From a phage, in sequence record PQ724393.1: DNA of 64,000 nucleotides. One strand, 5' to 3'. Made by a program: the position numbers and the translations under genes. The notes beneath the pieces are model-generated. The model made no database searches, was not told the DNA's origin, and saw nothing but the letters and a program-made list of their open reading frames with translations. Shown piece after piece: positions 4,090 through 22,185 of this stretch. The first letter of the stretch is position 1. Each line of letters starts with the position of its first letter.

Positions 4090-5744
<1,655 letters not shown>

Positions 5745-5767
<23 letters not shown>

Positions 5768-6101
5768 AATTAGACCGTAGCTTTTTAATGGCAGTAAAAT
5801 CTTTGCGAATATCGAGAACCAATTTGTAAAGATGTTTAATTGTATCTGTATCAAAATATGATACCGCGCAACGTGATTGGCGAATATCTTCTAATGAATA
5901 TTTGCTTTCGCAAGACCCGTATCCAATGATACCACTAATGCACTTGTCATTAAGCGTATATTTCTGTGGGCCATCAATATTATTTTTAGGATAGATATAA
6001 AGGCTCCAATCAAATTTTTGTTCAAGCGTATTAACCTTAACTTCAAGAATCAGTTCAGGATGGGCATCATCTTTAGCAAAGCAAGTGTATTCAGTAAGCA
6101 T
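5745..6101 (-). CDS. Hypothetical protein
   Basis: 118 aa ORF, SD-like GAGGTG upstream, stop/start overlap with upstream gene. Confidence 0.45.
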
Positions 6102-6346
6102 TATAGCACCTCAACATGTGTGATATCGTTTGGCCAAATGATGTCATGATGGTTATAATAGGAAATATCGCCCTTAACAAAACGATAATTATTACCACGG
6201 CCTTGCTCCCAGGCCAAAGATACCTTATGGAGGTTTTCATAACGGTCCCTGACCCAAAAGGATTCGTCATATGCTGTATTATTATAAAGTCTATCCAATT
6301 CTGCTTCGGTACCAGTAAACTCTTTTAAATTGATAGTAATTTGCAT
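6101..6346 (-). CDS. Hypothetical protein, 81 aa (track ORF 6101-6583 trimmed to internal Met)
   Basis: Strong SD GAGGAAAA 6 nt before internal ATG; longer reading overlaps neighbouring gene. Confidence 0.4.
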   Translation of the reverse strand: MQITINLKEFTGTEAELDRLYNNTAYDESFWVRDRYENLHKVSLAWEQGRGNNYRFVKGDISYYNHHDIIWPNDITHVEVL

Positions 6347-6356
6347 TATATTTTCC

Positions 6357-6596
6357 TCACGCTTTCTTAGCGATTTTCCAGTCAGCTTTAAATTGGTCGA
6401 CATCAGAGTGGTGAATCCAGAAACCAGACGAGCTACCATCTTCATAAAGAGGACAACCATCACACTCATCTTTCCAACCCATCGCGCATAAAGCTTGTTC
6501 AGCTTTTTCCAGAGCTTCCGGGTTATTACCTTGGATTGTGAAGTACCATTTGCCTTTAACTTCAGAATCGTTGATTGATTCACGTTGTAATTTCAT
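6357..6596 (-). CDS. Hypothetical protein, 79 aa
   Basis: SD AAGGAGAA before ATG at 6596; early promoter just upstream. Confidence 0.45.
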   Translation of the reverse strand: MKLQRESINDSEVKGKWYFTIQGNNPEALEKAEQALCAMGWKDECDGCPLYEDGSSSGFWIHHSDVDQFKADWKIAKKA

Positions 6597-6620
6597 TTTA
6601 TTCTCCTTAGTTGACAAGGC

Positions 6621-6651
6621 TATAGTATCACTACCATAGCCTGATGTAAAC
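6621..6651 (-). promoter_or_regulatory. T4-type early promoter (GTTTAC -35, 18 nt spacer, TG-extended TACTAT -10)
   Basis: Minus-strand GTTTAC at 6646-6651 and the conserved TGATACTATAG block. Confidence 0.5.
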
Positions 6652-6879
6652 TTATTTTTGAATTAAGCCCATATAAAATTTAGTGTCTTCCGGGTGCATA
6701 CCGTCGCAATACTCGTCAGCCATAAAGCGGGTAAGGTCTTCAAGAGGACCTTGGACTTCAATTTGCATACTACAGAATTGAGTATCTTTAATATGGGTCA
6801 CAACTAAAGAAGGATAACGATTACGGATAACTTCGTAAGTGTATTCAAAATCAACGATATCAATATTAACCTTAGCCAT
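6652..6879 (-). CDS. Hypothetical protein, 75 aa (start moved to MAKVNID)
   Basis: SD GAGGAAAA before the internal ATG; upstream ATG lies in the leader. Confidence 0.45.
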
Positions 6880-16685: not shown

Positions 16686-19600
16686 ATGGCTACTTTAAAA
16701 TCGATACAATTTAAAAGAAGTAAAATAGCAGGAGCCAAGCCTACTGCAGCCCAGTTAGATGAAGGTGAACTGGCTATTAACTTGCGTGACCGTACCATTT
16801 TTACTAAGTCAGACCAGGGACAGATTATTGACCTTGGTTTTGCAAAGGGTGGTACTGTCGATGGCGATGTAACTATTAATGGGACCCTGAATTTAAACGG
16901 TCCTGAAATTGTTGCCTCTGGTGGTTATATAGAATTTAACTATCGTACGACAGGTAGTGGCTCTTGGGCAGGCCAGCACAGGGCCAAAGCTCCTATTTTT
17001 GCTGATTTAAGTGCGGCTGCATCTACTTCAGAATACAACCCACTGATTAAACAACGCTTTAAAGATGGAACATTTTCAGCAGGCACATTAGTTTCGGAAG
17101 GTAGTTTTAAATTCCACTATATTAATGAAGCTGGTGATTCAAAATATTGGACCTTTAATCGTAATGGTAATTTTCAAGTTGATACCGGTAGTTTAATGGT
17201 ATCAGCAGGTAATATTTCTGCATCAGGCAACATAAATTCGGCTAATGGTATTATCACCGGTCCTGAAATTGTTACCAAAAATATTAATTTCAGTACAAAA
17301 TCATTTGTAGCTAATGCAAATATAGGATACGACTGGGTTTCATTACCTACCTGGGTTTATAATCCTCCTGCTGATGGTTCTGATGATACTACTAACGGTT
17401 TAAACTATTTGCGTAAATTGCGTGCATCAAGTGCATCAAGTATTTTCCATGAAATTGCTGATTGTCGCAAAGGTAAACCACAAGAAATTTCTTGGTGGAC
17501 CGGCGTAGGACCATCGTCTTTCCAATGGGCTTTTGATAACTCTGGACGTATTACCGCAGGTAAATCAATTTCTGTAGGTCTTCCTGATAATGGTACAAAT
17601 GGTCGTTACCCACTAGATTCAGCAATTTCTATTGGTATTGCAATTGGTGATAATGACACCGGTATTAAATGGGTTCGTGACGGCGTTATTGATTTCATGG
17701 CTAACAGTATTTCAACCGCTACCATTTTGAATAACGGTATTAACAGTACTAAAAAATTGACGGTCGGTTATAGCCGTGATTCCGGCTCTACTTGGGATTT
17801 CCCAAATAACAACCAGGCAATGTTTACTGCTCGTACCGATATTGATGGTAATAATAATGGTGACGGTCAGACTCATATCGGTTATAGCAGCAATGCCAAG
17901 ATGTATCACTATTTCCGTGGCACAGGTCGTATGTCTGTTAGTATGGGTGATGGACTTCTTGTTGAACCGGGTATTTTAGATATTAAAACCGGTTCAAATT
18001 CATTAAATTTACGTGCTGACGGTACTGTTGCTTCAACGAAAAGAATTAAACTTGATAATGGATTGGTTCTTACCGGTTCTAGACCTGATGGTATTCAACT
18101 TGATGCACCCACATCAGTAGATGGCACTAAATCTATTTTGTGGGCTGGTGGTACTCGCGCAGGTCAGAATAAAAACTATGTAACTATTAAAGCATGGGGT
18201 AATGCATTCAACTCAACTGGTGATAAAACCCGTGAAACCGTATTTGAAGTTGGAGATGGACAAGGATACCATTTTTATTCACAGCGCATATCCCCTACCG
18301 GAGTTGAAACAGTTGGCCCTGTGATTATTCAAATGGCAGGTAGTTTATTGGCTCGTGGTACGTTAAACACTGATGGCAATCTTTATGTGAAAGGATTAAG
18401 TACACATGAAGGTACTGTGACCATGAATAATGGCCTTCGTTTAACTGGCGGCGCTAATATAAGCGGCCAGGTTAAAATTGGTGGTGTTAACGATGCATTG
18501 AGAATTTGGAACGACCGATATGGTGCTATTTTCCGTCGCTCAGAAACATCATTACATATTATCCCGACCAATGAAAATGAAGGTGAAAACGGTCCGATAA
18601 GCAACCTTCGCCCGTTTAGTATTGAATTAGGTACTGGTGCCATTAATATGGGCCATTCTTTAATGATAGGCAACTCGGCCCGCGGTGATGGCCTGCTGAA
18701 TATTGATACCAAAGCATTCTTGATTACAATTAACAGTCATTCGAAAATTAAACCTAATTATCGTATGGACTTAGAAAACGGTGCTTATATAAATGCTTTA
18801 ATGGATGCAAACGGTCGTTCAGCTGGCGCAGGTTCATTCGCGTCCCAGAATAATGAAAACGTCCGCGCTCCATTCTACATGAATATCGACCGTGATGATA
18901 CCAGCACTTATGTTCCAATGATAAAGCAACGTTATGTTCAGGGTAATGGATGTTTTTCAATAGGTACTTTGTTGAATAATGGCAACTTCCGCGTCCATTA
19001 TCACGCTGGTGGTGACGGTGGTTCGACTGGTGCTCAGATTGCAGATTACGGTTGGGAATTCACTAAATCCGGTGATTTTGTATCTCCACGACGTGTCTCG
19101 GCAGGTGGTTCGGTTTATCTAGGTACGGATGGTAATATCACTGGTGGTTCTGGTAATTTCTCTAACCTGAATACTACTTTAGACCGCAAAGTTACCACGG
19201 GGTGGATTAACTATTCTTCTGAAAGTGGCTGGTATAAATTGGCAACAGTAAATATGCCTCAAGGTGCAGCTACGGTCCAATTTAAAATAACAGGCGGTTC
19301 CGGTTTTAACGTTGGTATTTTTAGACAAGCAACAATTAATGAAATTGTATTGCGTTCCGGTAATAATACACCTAAAGGAATTAACGGTGTTTTATGGCAG
19401 CGCGAAACTGATGCTATTAAAGACATTGCATATATTAATACCTCAGACGATGAGTATGATGTTTATATTAATTGTGGTACTTATTTAAATAGACTTACCC
19501 TAGAATATAGCACTTCAGAAAACGCTTCGGTAGTAGTTTATGGATTATATGGGCCTACGCAATCACCGGTAGAAGAGCTTCCTGTAGATATTGTTAAAGG

Positions 19601-20663
19601 TCGTGTTTTTAAACTTCTTAATAATAGCTCAGATGTTTTTGACGCTGGTAGTTCTAATATTTCTACAAATGCCACCTTTGTTGCTAATACAACTGTAGGT
19701 TTCCGCCATAAATCCAATGGTGATGAAAGTGGTTCTGCCGCTACTCTGTTTTATAATGATGGTACTACGTTCCATATATTATTAACAGATAAGAACACCG
19801 ACACAGATAAAACTAAAGCCTCTGGTTCTAACAACAGTTTAAGGCCTTTTTCTATCAATATTGCTTCTGGTAAAGTAACTATTTCAAACTCTATGAGTGT
19901 TTCTGGTGTTGCAGAGTTTTATAACGGTCTTAATATCAAAAACAATGGAAGCATTAATTTTGATAAGTCTGGTGCGAACCCGAGAAACATGCGTATATTC
20001 CATGCCGGTGATGCTTCACGTGGAAACCGTATTGAAGTTGCGGATGAGTCTAATTACTTAGTTTATTGGGAAAAAACTCCGGGCGGCGCAAACCGTTCTT
20101 CATATAACCAATGTGAAGTTAATGGTATAACTACTCTTAACGTTAATACTAAAGTGAACACCCCACAAATTGGAGCATTTGGTGTTAACACAACTAATGG
20201 ATTTGGTGGTAACTCAATTGTAATAGGTGATACCGATACAGGTTTCAGACAAGTTGGCGATGGACTTTTAGAAGTTTGGACCAATGCCGTTCGCCGGATG
20301 CGATTCCAGAGTGGTGACACTTATTCTGATATGAATATAAATGCTCCAAACGTTTATATTCGTTCGGATATCAGATTGAAATCTAACTTCAAACCTATTG
20401 AAAATGCTCTTGAAAAGGTTGAACAGCTCGACGGTTTAATCTATGATAAAGCTGATTATATTGGTGGAGAGGTTGTTCACACTGAAGCAGGTGTTATTGC
20501 ACAGAGCCTGGAAAAAGTATTACCTGAAGCTATTCGTGAAGTTGAAGATATCAAAGGTAATAAAGTTCTGACCGTTTCGACTCAGGCCCAAGTGGCGCTG
20601 TTACTTGAAGCGGTTAAAACCCTGTCGGCTAAAGTTAGAGAACTTGAAGCTAAATTAAATTAA
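16686..20663 (+). CDS. 37: Long tail fiber distal subunit gp37 with C-terminal intramolecular chaperone-like domain
   Basis: 1325 aa; C-terminal ~110 aa carries SDIRLK (S74-type autoproteolysis signature) and a coiled-coil tail. Confidence 0.85.
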   Translation: MATLKSIQFKRSKIAGAKPTAAQLDEGELAINLRDRTIFTKSDQGQIIDLGFAKGGTVDGDVTINGTLNLNGPEIVASGGYIEFNYRTTGSGSWAGQHRAKAPIFADLSAAASTSEYNPLIKQRFKDGTFSAGTLVSEGSFKFHYINEAGDSKYWTFNRNGNFQVDTGSLMVSAGNISASGNINSANGIITGPEIVTKNINFSTKSFVANANIGYDWVSLPTWVYNPPADGSDDTTNGLNYLRKLRASSASSIFHEIADCRKGKPQEISWWTGVGPSSFQWAFDNSGRITAGKSISVGLPDNGTNGRYPLDSAISIGIAIGDNDTGIKWVRDGVIDFMANSISTATILNNGINSTKKLTVGYSRDSGSTWDFPNNNQAMFTARTDIDGNNNGDGQTHIGYSSNAKMYHYFRGTGRMSVSMGDGLLVEPGILDIKTGSNSLNLRADGTVASTKRIKLDNGLVLTGSRPDGIQLDAPTSVDGTKSILWAGGTRAGQNKNYVTIKAWGNAFNSTGDKTRETVFEVGDGQGYHFYSQRISPTGVETVGPVIIQMAGSLLARGTLNTDGNLYVKGLSTHEGTVTMNNGLRLTGGANISGQVKIGGVNDALRIWNDRYGAIFRRSETSLHIIPTNENEGENGPISNLRPFSIELGTGAINMGHSLMIGNSARGDGLLNIDTKAFLITINSHSKIKPNYRMDLENGAYINALMDANGRSAGAGSFASQNNENVRAPFYMNIDRDDTSTYVPMIKQRYVQGNGCFSIGTLLNNGNFRVHYHAGGDGGSTGAQIADYGWEFTKSGDFVSPRRVSAGGSVYLGTDGNITGGSGNFSNLNTTLDRKVTTGWINYSSESGWYKLATVNMPQGAATVQFKITGGSGFNVGIFRQATINEIVLRSGNNTPKGINGVLWQRETDAIKDIAYINTSDDEYDVYINCGTYLNRLTLEYSTSENASVVVYGLYGPTQSPVEELPVDIVKGRVFKLLNNSSDVFDAGSSNISTNATFVANTTVGFRHKSNGDESGSAATLFYNDGTTFHILLTDKNTDTDKTKASGSNNSLRPFSINIASGKVTISNSMSVSGVAEFYNGLNIKNNGSINFDKSGANPRNMRIFHAGDASRGNRIEVADESNYLVYWEKTPGGANRSSYNQCEVNGITTLNVNTKVNTPQIGAFGVNTTNGFGGNSIVIGDTDTGFRQVGDGLLEVWTNAVRRMRFQSGDTYSDMNINAPNVYIRSDIRLKSNFKPIENALEKVEQLDGLIYDKADYIGGEVVHTEAGVIAQSLEKVLPEAIREVEDIKGNKVLTVSTQAQVALLLEAVKTLSAKVRELEAKLN

Positions 20664-20668
20664 GAAAA

Positions 20669-20682
20669 GGGCCTTCGGGCCC
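20669..20682 (+). other. Hairpin GGGCC-UUCG-GGCCC in the 37-38 spacer, abutting the gp38 SD
   Basis: Perfect stem and tetraloop seen; no U tract. Confidence 0.4.
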
Positions 20683-20694
20683 TAAGGATTTATT

Positions 20695-21495
20695 ATGGCA
20701 ATCGTAGGATTACCCGGTTGGGTCGGCCAATCTGCAGTTGACGAAACAGGTCAACGTTGGATGGATGCAGCAATGCGTGATGTTCGTGTAGCTGTTCCGG
20801 GTTGGATGGGTTCGATGGCTAACCAATCAAAAGAAATTTACTTATCTATAGGGGCTAATCATAACTATGATAGGAATACCCTTATAAACTGGATGAGAGC
20901 ACAAGGTGGTGCGCCTGTGGTTATTACAATTACCGGCGACTTGGTATCAAATAGCCGCGGAAACCCTTGCCTGGAATTCCCTAGCAATCTTCCTAACGCA
21001 TATATTCAACTTACCATTAATAGCGGTGTGACTGTTTATGGCCGAGGAGGCCGAGGAGGCTGGACCCATAGCAACGGCAATGGTAATGGTGAGGCCGGCG
21101 GAATAGCCATACAAAACAATGCCGGAACTAAACTTCGTATCCGTAATAATGGCGCTATAGCCGGTGGTGGTGGCGGTGGCGGTGGCATCGCGTATAGGCC
21201 CCATTCAGGTGCTAACTGGCAAGATATAGGCGCTGGCGGCGGTAGACCATTTGGTGCAGCTGGTGGCGGAGGATACTCCGGTGGGGCGGCATCTCTTACC
21301 GGAGCAGGTGGTGGTTATAATTATGGTAACGCGCATTCCGGTGCTGGTGGGAATGTCGGTGCTAAAGGCCAAAACGCTTGGAATGATGGAGGTAAAGTGC
21401 TTAAAGTTGGCGCTGGTGGTAATGCTGGGGCAGCAGTCGCCGGTAATGCTCCTAACTGGCAAAACGTTGGTACGATATACGGAAGCAGAGTATAA
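20695..21495 (+). CDS. 38: T2-type receptor-binding adhesin gp38 with glycine-rich motifs
   Basis: N-terminus MAIVGLPGWVGQSAVDETGQRW, poly-Gly blocks, C-terminal WQNVGTIYGSRV. Confidence 0.8.
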   Translation: MAIVGLPGWVGQSAVDETGQRWMDAAMRDVRVAVPGWMGSMANQSKEIYLSIGANHNYDRNTLINWMRAQGGAPVVITITGDLVSNSRGNPCLEFPSNLPNAYIQLTINSGVTVYGRGGRGGWTHSNGNGNGEAGGIAIQNNAGTKLRIRNNGAIAGGGGGGGGIAYRPHSGANWQDIGAGGGRPFGAAGGGGYSGGAASLTGAGGGYNYGNAHSGAGGNVGAKGQNAWNDGGKVLKVGAGGNAGAAVAGNAPNWQNVGTIYGSRV

Positions 21496-21505
21496 TACCC
21501 CATAT

Positions 21506-21513
21506 TATAAATA
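21506..21513 (+). promoter_or_regulatory. T4 late promoter TATAAATA upstream of holin t
   Basis: Exact octamer followed by AAGGAG SD and ATG. Confidence 0.6.
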
Positions 21514-21531
21514 TCTTTAAAGGAGAAAAGT

Positions 21532-22185
21532 ATGGAACCAAAAGTAGGATTTTCATTATCAGACCTACTTTTTGGACTTCTTGATAGAATTTTTAAAGAT
21601 ACTTCTTCCGGGAAAGTAGTTTTTTCCCGGGTCCTAGTCGTAATATTATTGTTCTTTATGGCACTGGTTTGGTATAAAGGCGAGTATATTCTAAACTTTT
21701 ACAAAGAGACAACTTATGCCTCTTATACTGAAATGATTAGACAAGACCAGGACAATAGATTTAAAATTGCGGCTATCGAGCAGCTCCGAATAGTGCATTC
21801 TTCTTCAGGCGCGGACTTCACAGCAATATATTCTTTTAGACCAACCAACATGAATTATTTTGTGGATATGGTTGCTTACGAGGGTAAATTACCGGAAACG
21901 GTAGACGCAAAAAATACGGGAGGGTTTCCAATTGACAAAACGTCAGTAGAATATATGGCGGGAGTTAACGGGAACTATTTTGAATCAAGTACCGAAACTG
22001 TATTCCTTCCTACAAAGAAGAAAACACAATTCACATATATGTTTTCATGCCCGTTTTTTAATTTGGATAACGTCTACGCCGGCTCGATATCGTTGTACTG
22101 GTACGATATCAAACCGGATTTAGGATTTCCTAGACTTTCGTCTATGTGTGGTCAAGCCGGGAGGACATTAGGTCGAACACGTTAG
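21532..22185 (+). CDS. t: Holin T
   Basis: 217 aa, N-terminal TM segment plus large periplasmic domain, T-holin-like; after gene 38 as in T4. Confidence 0.8.
   Translation: MEPKVGFSLSDLLFGLLDRIFKDTSSGKVVFSRVLVVILLFFMALVWYKGEYILNFYKETTYASYTEMIRQDQDNRFKIAAIEQLRIVHSSSGADFTAIYSFRPTNMNYFVDMVAYEGKLPETVDAKNTGGFPIDKTSVEYMAGVNGNYFESSTETVFLPTKKKTQFTYMFSCPFFNLDNVYAGSISLYWYDIKPDLGFPRLSSMCGQAGRTLGRTR

Follow-up and report, generated by a model that had tools for sequence, protein, structure and literature searches.

A glycine-rich stretch of phage DNA at positions 21040-21440 of the window (the whole stretch of DNA analysed, 64,000 nucleotides in length) raises the question of what its repeats encode and whether they take part in changes of host range. 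An earlier note on this DNA had regarded it as a likely host-range hotspot of gp38, in which recombination between polyglycine blocks would swap the loops that recognize the receptor. On the evidence presented here, the region is very probably the receptor-specificity domain of this adhesin, carried as a foreign block of OmpA class on a Dhakavirus backbone. The earlier interpretation is correct in its essentials, although the idea has long been in print (Tetart 1998; Trojet 2011; Dunne 2018).

Gene Identity and Predicted Fold

The open reading frame (ORF) that contains the region is a long-tail-fibre adhesin gp38 of the T2/T6/S16 type, and it lies between the genes of the distal fibre subunit and the holin:

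16686-20663, + strand: gp37, long tail fibre distal subunit, 1325 aa (PHROG 1699, E 5e-299)
20695-21495, + strand: coding sequence of the gp38 adhesin, 266 aa plus stop, with Pfam, PHROG, PDB and model matches
21506-21513, + strand: TATAAATA, the T4 late-promoter consensus, 5′ of t and inside the conserved right-hand homology arm
21532-22185, + strand: holin t (Pfam Phage_holin_T, E 3.6e-66)

The identity of gp38, already proposed in the earlier note, is borne out by several matches. The ORF exceeds the curated cut-offs of both family profiles, namely Pfam PF05268 (E 2.3e-67, 227.5 bits, cut-off 25) and PF21721 (E 5.8e-16, 58.6 bits, cut-off 25), and it is also matched by PHROG 2056 (E 9e-98) and by the sequence of PDB 6F45_D (E 6.7e-42). 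The latter entry is the gp38 of Salmonella phage S16 (Dunne et al. 2018). The AF2 model of the protein (pLDDT 92.2) comprises an attachment domain and a sandwich, both of full length, and its predicted fold is a polyglycine-II sandwich on a beta-helix. In a Foldseek search this model retrieved 6f45_D (E 1.5e-23, TM 0.79/0.84), and no different fold scored better than E 1; against PP01 gp38 (9v85) the TM values were 0.72/0.85.

The fibre formed by gp37 is the one whose tip carries gp38. In the window, gp37 contains a C-terminal intramolecular chaperone domain (Pfam Peptidase_S74 at aa 1227-1283) and its final ~200 nt are 100% identical to those of phage fDHCT2. The gene order gp37-gp38-t is the same in fDHCT2, IME08, VR20, and T2. 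From established T4 knowledge, TATAAATA at 21506-21513 is presumably the late promoter of t, and the surrounding stretch 21503-21530 is identical in DCP80, fDHCT2, IME08, and VR20. A scan of 20550-21650 for sigma-70 promoters and terminators gave the same counts as shuffled sequences, and a hairpin at 20668-20683 is no more stable than its shuffles (z = -1.2). Minus-strand ORFs over the region, such as a poly-Pro ORF at 21036-21188, are a mirror of the GGN codons and were rejected as unsupported.

Conserved Glycine Motifs and Hypervariable Segments

[quoted passage not shown] Mean pairwise identity is 70-94% in the GRMs (81-94% in GRM1-3) and 21-36% in the HVSs; the alternation is also visible in the per-column entropy, and the order and number of GRMs are strictly kept in all homologues. 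The domain map is as follows (identities given as "all-pair" refer to the homologues; invariant glycine-motif columns were judged over 89 sequences):

20695-21036, + strand: N-terminal attachment domain and first part of the beta-helix, aa 1-114 (Pfam Gp38_N at aa 1-42)
21037-21060, + strand: GRM1, YGRGGRGG, aa 115-122 (invariant G116, R117, G118, G119), left junction of the swapped cassette, with a perfect 9-nt tandem repeat at 21040-21060
21061-21096, + strand: HVS1, WTHSNGNGNGEA, aa 123-134, first extension of the polyglycine sandwich (all-pair identity 34%)
21097-21162, + strand: beta-helix rung between the sandwich extensions, aa 135-156, of T2/Dhakavirus-type ancestry
21163-21186, + strand: GRM2, a run of eight Gly, aa 157-164, encoded by GGT GGT GGT GGC GGT GGC GGT GGC (all-pair identity 94%)
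21187-21228, + strand: HVS2, IAYRPHSGANWQDI, aa 165-178, predicted main receptor-contact loop (all-pair identity 21%)
21229-21255, + strand: GRM3, GAGGGRPFG, aa 179-187 (all-pair identity 93%; invariant G182, G183, P185, F186, G187)
21256-21339, + strand: HVS3, aa 188-215, with minor Gly motifs inside (all-pair identity 36%)
21340-21369, + strand: GRM4, GAGGNVGAKG, aa 216-225 (invariant G216, G218, G219, G225)
21370-21414, + strand: HVS4, QNAWNDGGKVLKVGA, aa 226-240 (all-pair identity 27%)
21415-21447, + strand: GRM5, GGNAGAAVAGN, aa 241-251, where ancestry returns to the T2/Dhakavirus type
21448-21492, + strand: conserved C-terminal strands, APNWQNVGTIYGSRV, folding back into the beta-helix

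The attachment domain (aa 1-114) goes with the phage backbone and the gp37 tip, its nucleotide identity to fDHCT2 being 99% over aa 1-70 and 89% over aa 71-114. Three tryptophans (W9, W22, and W37) are invariant in alignments A1 (10 sequences) and A3, and the model places helices at residues 10-18, 23-29, and 38-41; conserved tryptophans at the tips of the N-terminal helices have been described to dock into gp37 (PMC6851490). At the opposite end, the protein sequence of APNWQNVGTIYGSRV is identical to that of T2, with model strands at residues 254-257 and 260-262, and the domain description in which such strands fold back into the beta-helix comes from the same study (PMC6851490).

According to this architecture, gp38 would act as a monomeric adhesin capping the gp37 long tail fibre. 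The conserved Gly motifs would form polyglycine-II helices packed as a three-layer sandwich, and the HVSs between them would be distal loops touching an outer-membrane protein of the host. The region varies strongly among phages that differ in receptor and host, which supports the host-range role given to it by the earlier note: it is the GRM/HVS specificity domain of a T2-type gp38.

Composition of the Glycine-Rich DNA

The description of 21040-21440 as GGN-rich and repetitive is confirmed, since 48 of the 133 in-frame codons are GGN as compared with 7 and 4 in the other frames. No other part of the 64-kb window is as rich in GG dinucleotides (57 per 401 nt; mean 17, sd 5.6), and the GC content of the stretch is 56.9%, versus 39.7% for the whole window. 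Glycine makes up 36% of gp38 residues 115-251 and 11% of residues 1-114. The 18-mer quoted in the earlier note, GGTGGCGGTGGCGGTGGC, is present exactly at 21169-21186 and with one mismatch at 21163-21180, and no copy was found in 100 shuffles; TRF reports (CGGTGG)x4.2 at 21162-21186 and a perfect 9-nt unit, (GGCCGAGGA)x2.3, at 21040-21060. The picture of poly-Gly blocks separated by short variable segments also proved accurate, as these segments do vary among homologues.

Such repeats might be thought to drive non-allelic events in a single gene, that is, slippage or unequal exchange between Gly blocks that deletes, duplicates, or resizes loops. The 9-nt tandem repeat and the (GGTGGC)n tract at 21163-21186 speak for this process, the longest Gly run (GRM2 in this gene) ranges from 7 to 9 residues in 115 of the 120 homologues, and indels are found beside the Gly motifs in HVS1 and HVS3. 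Nonetheless, we regard this explanation as improbable. Non-overlapping exact direct repeats in 21037-21495 reach at most 11 nt, a length equal to the median obtained when the codons of this protein were resampled 1000 times, the strict conservation of GRM order and number speaks against such events, and T6 is not viable after deletion of any single GRM or HVS (PMC3157838). The idea that the DNA is repetitive beyond the needs of the protein was rejected on the same resampling; the repetitiveness of the DNA is only what a Gly-rich protein dictates.

Predicted Receptor

The loops of this gp38 match those of the OmpA-binding class represented by phages RB32, FL08, and AV119, and OmpA is therefore the predicted primary receptor. 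By HVS type the protein carries the set 1,1,1,1, shared with 41 homologues. Amino acid identity to the OmpA class is 58-75% in HVS1 (67% in one of the comparisons, as against 23-31% to Dhakavirus-type alleles), 86-100% in HVS2 (RB32/FL08/AV119), 71-82% in HVS3 (75-82% in one of the comparisons), and 87-100% in HVS4, whereas identity of HVS1-4 to the other classes is 0-39%. The receptor of RB32 is OmpA together with LPS (PMC3157838), and FL08 and AV119 are OmpA-dependent (PMC12032242). In FL08 the contacts with OmpA (R165-A170 and D217) are in-silico predictions (PMC12032242); five of the six residues in R165-A170 are kept here, as R168, H170, S171, G172, and A173, while V166 is replaced by P169, as in RB32, and D217 by N220. 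O157-phage-like matches had suggested an OmpC binder of PP01 type, a candidate that was rejected: HVS2-4 of PP01 differ, and the group that includes this gp38 holds the OmpA-dependent FL08, AV119, and RB32.

It is important to note that single HVS changes can switch the receptor, as shown for the Q206L substitution of RB68 (bioRxiv 10.64898/2026.04.02.716166), and loop identities of 75-100% are therefore no guarantee of OmpA. Host range would indeed shift by point changes in the loops, and one could ask whether its variation here is mainly the product of point mutation and diversifying selection on loops, not of recombination. Besides RB68, single-residue receptor switches in HVS2/HVS3 have been published for T6/PST (PMC3157838), and the lone non-synonymous difference that this phage shows from DCP80 inside the exchanged block (described below) is N127D in HVS1. 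We consider this reading unlikely in view of three observations. Strong purifying selection acts on the loops inside the OmpA class (omega 0.06-0.11, saturated dS), HVS types form discrete sets, and what separates the window from its genomic relatives is an entire sharp-edged block and not a scatter of substitutions.

Recent Exchange of a Specificity Cassette

The backbone of this phage belongs, as judged by genome-scale nucleotide comparison of 24 kb, to the genus Dhakavirus, whose members are the best matches. AnYang covers 91% of the 24-kb query at 91.4% identity and fDHCT2 78% at 95.9%, and IME08, CLB_P2, dhabil, and IME341 cover 82% at ~92%. A defined block departs from this backbone:

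21043-21502, + strand: recently exchanged block (specificity cassette), near-identical to DCP80 and unlike the Dhakavirus relatives

With respect to fDHCT2 there is a single mismatch in 20651-20900; the two sequences diverge from 21051 on, agree at only 30-80% within the block, and are again 100% identical from 21503. The pattern with DCP80 is the opposite, with 31 mismatches in 20703-21042 and only 5 in 21043-21601 (99% identity), the near-identity extending past the block to 21601. In agreement with a recent event, dS against DCP80 is 0.06 in the HVSs versus 0.42 in the N-terminal part. Among 50,697 phage records, DCP80 is the sole one with more than 75% nucleotide identity to the block, and IMG/VR scans for the same cassette gave nothing closer than 70% at the amino acid level. 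The metagenomic protein cluster P0001 is 99% identical over its full length and has the same combination of N-terminal domain and HVSs; this phage shares its T2/Dhakavirus-type scaffold with OmpA-class loops only with DCP80 and P0001.

The block has visibly the form of a cassette, and it appears to have been swapped in by natural exchange with its left junction in GRM1. Host range can also shift when T-even phages infecting the same cell swap the part of gp38 that bears the loops by homologous recombination, crossing over in conserved DNA beside and between these loops. Here the phage would have kept its own gp37 tip and gp38 attachment domain and acquired a foreign specificity block from GRM1 (about 21043-21051) to 21502, just short of the presumed t late promoter; that the transfer ran in this direction is something we infer.

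An assembly artefact, namely a chimeric contig of a mixed T-even population, would also produce a mosaic of this kind. T-even phages do co-occur in samples, and DCP80, in which alone the block was otherwise seen among phage records, is unusual in its own right. Yet the ORF is intact, both of its domains are full length and modelled with high confidence, and the same N-terminal/HVS combination occurs in DCP80 and, independently, in P0001, which makes an artefact extremely unlikely. As to DCP80, it is filed under another genus, its record has 141 kb, and its gp38 is followed by an exonuclease gene.

Signs of an Older Mosaic within the Sandwich

Signs of a deeper mosaic lie beneath the recent exchange. 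In runs tests, the informative sites yield z values of -7 to -11, with ancestry switches at GRM1, Gly135-136, GRM2 (21161-21185), and GRM5 (21414-21443 in four triplets). The rung at 21097-21162 is 76-80% identical at the nucleotide level to fDHCT2, VR20, and T2, versus 44-59% to OmpA-class alleles, and falls in state A in three of four triplet segmentations; with its GGNVG, GRM4 likewise resembles the T2/Dhakavirus type more than the OmpA class, which has GGDAG. These switches coincide with the two extensions of the beta-helix that build the sandwich in S16 gp38 (PMC6851490). Against each of the two putative parental lineages the synonymous sites have reached saturation (dS > 1), and the signal therefore lies mostly at the amino acid level. 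A recent origin of this inner mosaic was rejected for the same dS values; only the block from GRM1 to t is recent.

It is nearly an even chance, in our view, that the sandwich, discontinuous in sequence (aa 119-136 and 157-about 245), was transplanted as a unit onto a T2/Dhakavirus-type scaffold of beta-helix and attachment domain, the rung (aa 137-156) and the C-terminal strands remaining of recipient type. Such a transplantation calls for a minimum of four crossovers, or else for two patch exchanges nested one in the other, all of them located at Gly motifs. If true, fine-scale exchange mediated by GRMs follows three-dimensional domain boundaries in nature, and the sandwich could be combined at will with different scaffolds, the two being separable modules.

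Glycine Motifs as Sites of Recombination

Recombination at the conserved Gly motifs was proposed in print by Tetart et al. in 1998 (cited in PMC12032242), and experimental support for it has been reported (PMC3157838; bioRxiv 10.64898/2026.04.02.716166). The proposal of the earlier note that recombination between Gly blocks would swap the loops is supported with qualifications: a natural cassette junction does lie in GRM1, but the exchange is allelic, between the same motif of two phages, and not between blocks of one gene. The notion of a hotspot is qualified too, as crossovers are spread beyond the Gly motifs. Among 40 gp38 genes, 59 of 81 sharp identity transitions are in the N-terminal half (0.52 per residue); the density is 0.25-0.50 in GRM1, GRM2, and GRM4 and 0 in GRM3 and GRM5. 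In the C-terminal domain, 10 transitions occur in the 46 residues of the GRMs versus 9 in the 69 residues of the HVSs, and five of these nine sit in the Gly-containing middle of HVS3. Truncations of tblastn alignments at residue 109, probably due to the low-complexity filter plus divergence, were not used for breakpoints.

A quite different explanation, to which we give somewhat less than even odds, is that the Gly motifs are kept purely because polyglycine-II helices need them, with no recombinogenic role, and that exchange takes place wherever alleles share enough identity, mainly in the N-terminal half and the flanks, the GRMs being the sole conserved islands in a variable domain. The codon-resampled controls and the N-terminal excess of transitions are in line with it, as are the short exact stretches that alleles share at the GRMs (only 14-23 nt), the junction near aa 48 in the P0005 chimera, and the laboratory chimeras of Trojet et al., 14 out of 14 of which crossed over in the flanks, outside GRM1-GRM5 (PMC3157838). 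On the contrary, the denser transitions in GRMs than in HVSs, the junction of the window inside GRM1, and an engineered CM8 x EV240 recombinant that exchanged only from HVS2 on, with a crossover consequently near GRM2 (bioRxiv 10.64898/2026.04.02.716166), favour participation of the motifs. Junctions between divergent alleles are mappable only to conserved stretches, and their location at GRMs is therefore partly unavoidable; any special recombinogenic property of the motifs beyond their conservation would be a further, conjectural step.

Whatever the role of the motifs, the four loops pass on mostly as one set. When the HVS types of 120 proteins were clustered, no four-combination (reticulate) pattern was found between any pair of HVSs, the N-terminal domain versus the HVS set being the one pairing that showed it; that single loops shuffle independently was accordingly rejected. 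A few three-combination cases (HVS type 2 sets in P0002, P0004, P0057, P0067, and P0069) are not decisive.

Implications

As the chief determinant of the outer-membrane protein used by a T2-type phage, gp38 has loops that predict the receptor and part of the host range, and this prediction is of use in choosing or engineering therapeutic phages. The window offers a clean natural example, in which a 99%-identical block is found in two phages filed under different genera with nucleotide-resolved junctions at GRM1 and the t promoter. A cassette swap is an ordinary, already described route of host-range change, and current understanding is left as it was. New for this phage are its Dhakavirus backbone, its DCP80-like block, and OmpA as predicted receptor.

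Comparison with Known Systems

The T2/T6-type gp38 adhesins were reportedly characterized by Riede, Drexler, and Henning in 1987-89, by Tetart in 1998, and by Trojet in 2011. These proteins (PF05268, PF21721) share with the present one the gene position, the length, the N-terminal domain with three invariant Trp, and the same five GRMs and four HVSs followed by a conserved C-terminus, and they undergo modular exchange of specificity domains (PMC3157838). There is no architectural difference; what distinguishes this allele is its T2/Dhakavirus-type scaffold with OmpA-class loops. The gp38 of Salmonella phage S16 (PDB 6F45) has the same helical attachment bundle, beta-helix, and two-extension polyglycine-II sandwich, and the eight-Gly helix at its residues 151-158 has its equivalent here (PMC6851490). 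At 41% identity, the comparison reveals other loops, with HVS1 6 residues longer and HVS4 longer as the difference. PP01 gp38 (PDB 9v85, an OmpC binder) has the same fold and a T2-like scaffold but clearly different HVS2-4.

The T4 gp38, a tail-fibre assembly chaperone absent from the virion (PMC6851490), shares gene name and locus with the adhesin but is an unrelated protein; the label "distal long tail fiber assembly catalyst" on some homologues is a transfer from T4 and is wrong for the T2/S16-type family. The closest loops are those of the OmpA class, that is, RB32 (Ox2/M1-like) and the "type 1" phages FL08 and AV119. They are alike in HVS2, IAYR(P/V)HSGA(N/K)W(Q/K)DI, in the core of HVS3, GGGGYSGGAAS...GGGY(N/Q)YGNAHS, and in HVS4, QNAW(N/H/S)DGGKVLKVGA, with 71-100% identity per loop in HVS2-4. 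However, the N-terminal domain of this class is only 39-46% identical to that of the present gp38, its loops reach only 69-89% nucleotide identity with saturated dS, and the rung, GRM4, GRM5, and C-terminus of this gp38 are of T2/Dhakavirus type.

The gp38 gene and its locus

The interval 21040-21440 lies within an open reading frame that the earlier note had called gp38, and this gene call is borne out by matches to the Pfam families GP38 (PF05268, E 2.3e-67) and Gp38_N (PF21721, E 5.8e-16), to PHROG 2056 ('tail fiber protein; host specificity', E 9e-98), and to the solved structures of S16 gp38 (6f45_D, E 6.7e-42) and the PP01 gp38 receptor-binding domain (9v85, E 2e-39), as well as by its neighbours. 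The arrangement is the canonical T2-type distal tail-fibre locus:

16686-20663: gp37, upstream of gp38; 1325 aa, C-terminal Peptidase_S74 chaperone domain
20695-21495, + strand: gp38; 266 aa, contains 21040-21440
21532-22185: holin t, downstream of gp38

The AlphaFold2 model of gp38 (alignment of 89 homologues, mean pLDDT 92.2) resembles 6f45_D (TM 0.79/0.84) and 9v85 (TM 0.72/0.85), and its comparison with solved structures returned no fold other than gp38 below E 1. T2-type gp38 adhesins of wV7, JSE, HY03 and other phages are annotated as 'distal long tail fiber assembly catalyst' or 'tail protein and peptidase', names transferred from the unrelated T4 gp38 chaperone which mislead receptor prediction. 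The spacer separating the stop codon of gp37 from the start of gp38 contains a GC hairpin whose loop is UUCG (GGGCCTTCGGGCCC, 20668-20683), kept in DCP80, fDHCT2, and IME08; the fold of 20655-20700 (-12.7 kcal/mol) is not significantly more stable than that of shuffled sequences (z = -1.2).

Glycine-rich motifs and hypervariable segments

The scheme of five glycine-rich motifs (GRMs) and four hypervariable segments (HVSs) described by Trojet et al. (PMC3157838) was mapped onto this gp38, with boundaries set by per-column entropy (119 homologues), segment identities, and invariant columns (89 sequences).

Segments of the gp38 C-terminal domain (residues; window positions; sequence or character)
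GRM1: 115-122; 21037-21060; YGRGGRGG
HVS1: 123-134; 21061-21096; WTHSNGNGNGEA
Beta-helix rung: 135-156; 21097-21162; conserved
GRM2: 157-164; 21163-21186; eight Gly
HVS2: 165-178; 21187-21228; IAYRPHSGANWQDI
GRM3: 179-187; 21229-21255; GAGGGRPFG
HVS3: 188-215; 21256-21339; with minor Gly motifs
GRM4: 216-225; 21340-21369; GAGGNVGAKG
HVS4: 226-240; 21370-21414; QNAWNDGGKVLKVGA
GRM5: 241-251; 21415-21447; GGNAGAAVAGN
C-terminus: 252-266; 21448-21492; APNWQNVGTIYGSRV

Mean all-pair identity is 81, 94, 93, 70, and 74% in GRM1-5 and 34, 21, 36, and 27% in HVS1-4, so that poly-Gly blocks separated by short variable segments are indeed present. Relatives of gp38 occur in 760 phage records, with Escherichia, Shigella, Enterobacter, Yersinia, Salmonella, Citrobacter, Cronobacter, and others as hosts; across them the region is not invariant, and the HVSs differ strongly. 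In the crystal structure of S16 gp38, the Gly motifs are polyglycine-II helices forming a three-layer sandwich, which arises from two beta-helix extensions of 18 and 77 residues, and the HVSs are distal loops where the authors proposed receptor binding (PMC6851490).

The DNA is GGN-rich and repetitive, as had been described. The 18-mer quoted in the earlier note has an exact copy at 21169-21186 (chance expectation, none), GGN accounts for 48 of the 133 in-frame codons (for 7 and 4 when the other two frames are read), and glycine makes up 36% of residues 115-251 versus 11% of residues 1-114. GG-dinucleotide density reaches here the maximum of the 64-kb window (57 versus 17 +/- 5.6), and GC content is 57% versus 40% across the window. 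TRF detected (CGGTGG)x4.2 at 21162-21186 and, at 21040-21060, (GGCCGAGGA)x2.3, a perfect 9-nt tandem repeat that encodes GRGGRGG. Exact repeats that do not overlap nevertheless reach no more than 11 nt within 21037-21495, the median of 1000 synonymous-codon-resampled versions of the same protein; the repeats are therefore real, but solely a product of the Gly-rich protein.

Recent exchange of a gp38 cassette

The phage backbone is that of a Dhakavirus, the best matches of a 24-kb query being AnYang, CLB_P2, dhabil, IME341, fDHCT2 (95.9% identity), and IME08. When the gp38 gene alone was searched by megablast, Dhakavirus relatives matched gene positions 1-356 only (window 20695-21050), and T2, VR20, and CJ20 positions 1 to about 490 only (window to about 21185). 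Direct alignment to fDHCT2 gave one mismatch in 20651-20900 and scattered mismatches up to 21042; from 21051, inside GRM1, identity falls to 30-80%, returning to 100% from 21503, in a stretch that carries the T4 late-promoter consensus TATAAATA at 21506-21513; this whole stretch is identical in four of five comparison phages. The pattern is the opposite in DCP80, a phage filed as Gaprivervirus, with 31 mismatches in 20703-21042 and five in 21043-21601, four of them synonymous and the other N127D in HVS1. This picture is supported by dS: the comparison with DCP80 gives 0.06 for the HVSs and 0.42 for the N-terminal domain, and that with fDHCT2 gives 0.18 N-terminally and saturation in the HVSs. 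Of 50,697 phage records, DCP80 is the sole carrier of the block (next best, 71-74% nucleotide identity), and nothing nearer than 70% amino acid identity was found in IMG/VR; the metagenomic protein cluster P0001 is 99% identical to this gp38. On the evidence of these alignments, dS values, and database rarity, the block from GRM1 to the gene end has been transferred recently between two phages assigned to separate genera; the tip of gp37 and the gp38 attachment domain remained with the Dhakavirus backbone. This sharply resolved natural cassette swap, from 21043/21051 to 21502, is specific to this phage.

The GGCCGAGGA tandem repeat coincides exactly with the left junction of the swapped block. 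The second R of GRGGRGG is replaced by Q, H, or N in other gp38 alleles, and the repeat may reflect chance codon usage or be a remnant of slippage or gene conversion. As for DCP80 itself (PQ671644.1), its record is 141 kb long; locus 5001-6731 corresponds to window 21602 onward, gp37-gp38 are bordered by DNA primase and 'exonuclease subunit 1' in place of holin t, and identity to the window stops abruptly at 21601, about 70 nt inside t, which suggests rearrangement, deletion, or misassembly.

Deeper mosaicism

Informative sites were analyzed in four triplets, each of which set the window beside one allele of T2/Dhakavirus type and one of the OmpA class (the loop group of RB32, FL08, and AV119); the sites show strong clustering (z = -7 to -11 in runs tests). 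Ancestry switches at 21039-21052 (GRM1) and 21086-21103 (Gly135-136) in three of the four triplets, and at 21161-21185 (GRM2) and 21414-21443 (GRM5) in all four; the HVS1 segment was left unresolved by the IME08/ECML-134 triplet. OmpA-class ancestry marks aa 119-136 and aa 157 to about 245, which match the two extensions that form the sandwich in S16 gp38. The intervening rung and the C-terminal strands, parts of the beta-helix, are of T2/Dhakavirus type, the rung being 76-80% identical in nucleotides to fDHCT2, VR20, and T2 versus 44-59% to the OmpA class. This interleaved pattern fits several old exchanges ending at Gly motifs; its signal is largely at the amino acid level because dS exceeds 1 against both lineages, and junctions between divergent alleles are mappable to conserved islands only.

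Mosaicism is also seen elsewhere. At 20901-21042, within the beta-helix part of gp38, the mismatches of the window to fDHCT2 and to DCP80 fall mostly at shared positions, and the nearest alleles at 20980-21040 are VR20 and T2 (96%); this is a further small mosaic piece, with edges away from the Gly motifs. In the C-terminal part of gp37, surveyed over 20200-20470, identity to all five comparison phages is 50-70% at about 20245-20335 and rises again from about 20320; distal gp37 is itself mosaic, its last 200 nt or so alone being identical to fDHCT2. The metagenomic gp38 protein P0005 is a chimera, with residues 1-48 of window/T2 type and the remainder of FL08/RB32 type; its crossover is at the attachment-bundle/beta-helix boundary, away from Gly motifs. 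In the Dhakavirus phages KIT01 and MX01, OmpA-class loops accompany another type of N-terminal domain, which in MX01 shares about 46% identity with that of the window. Judging from such alleles, the whole gp38 gene has also been exchanged within Dhakavirus, besides the sandwich alone, presumably accompanied by the gp37 tip.

Glycine motifs as crossover points

The earlier note had proposed a host-range hotspot in which recombination between the glycine blocks swaps receptor loops. A recombination hotspot is a published hypothesis (Tetart, Desplats and Krisch, 1998, as cited in PMC12032242), supported by an engineered CM8 x EV240 recombinant in which exchange confined to HVS2 onward switched the receptor from Tsx to OmpA (bioRxiv 10.64898/2026.04.02.716166). 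That recombinant and the GRM1 junction in this phage uphold the Gly motifs as crossover points for loop swapping; recombination between different blocks of one gene, however, is not supported, given repeats no longer than the resampled median. Nor do the motifs rank first as crossover sites. Across 40 non-redundant gp38 genes, compared in pairs by an HMM within the gene bounds, 81 sharp transitions lead from near-identical to divergent sequence, although the pairs are not independent events and the HMM thresholds are arbitrary; the N-terminal half holds 59 (0.52 per residue), and the values per residue are 0.25 in GRM1, 0.50 in GRM2, 0.40 in GRM4, and 0.07-0.18 in the HVSs. All 14 laboratory chimeras of Trojet et al. 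had crossovers outside GRM1-GRM5 (PMC3157838). HVS types are inherited together as sets: in 120 proteins, the four-combination test showed reticulation nowhere but between N-terminal domain and HVS set. Exact identity between alleles at the GRMs is just 14-23 nt. A fair reading is that the conserved Gly motifs can and do act as crossover points, the sole ones available inside the domain; they are kept for structural reasons and are not preferred sites overall.

Predicted receptor

The loops match those of a large group (HVS2 86-100%, HVS4 87-100%, HVS3 71-82%, HVS1 58-75%) whose N-terminal domains are very different (39-46% identity). Three of its members have been characterized by experiment: FL08 and AV119 are OmpA-dependent, 'type 1' (PMC12032242), and RB32, placed there by alignment, has an adhesin that targets OmpA and LPS (PMC3157838). 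The predicted OmpA contacts R165, H167, S168, G169, and A170 of FL08 are conserved within R168-A173 of the window; V166 corresponds to P169, as in RB32, and D217 to N220. Purifying selection on these loops is strong within the class (omega 0.06-0.11). PP01 (OmpC) and T2 carry other loops. OmpA is the predicted primary receptor, with a likelihood kept moderate because single HVS substitutions can switch receptor, as RB68 Q206L does (bioRxiv 10.64898/2026.04.02.716166).

The glycine-rich region is confirmed as observed, and its interpretation is supported; the results particular to this phage are the swap at 21043/21051-21502 and the OmpA prediction. The feature itself is already known, an ordinary instance of the T2-type gp38 specificity domain.
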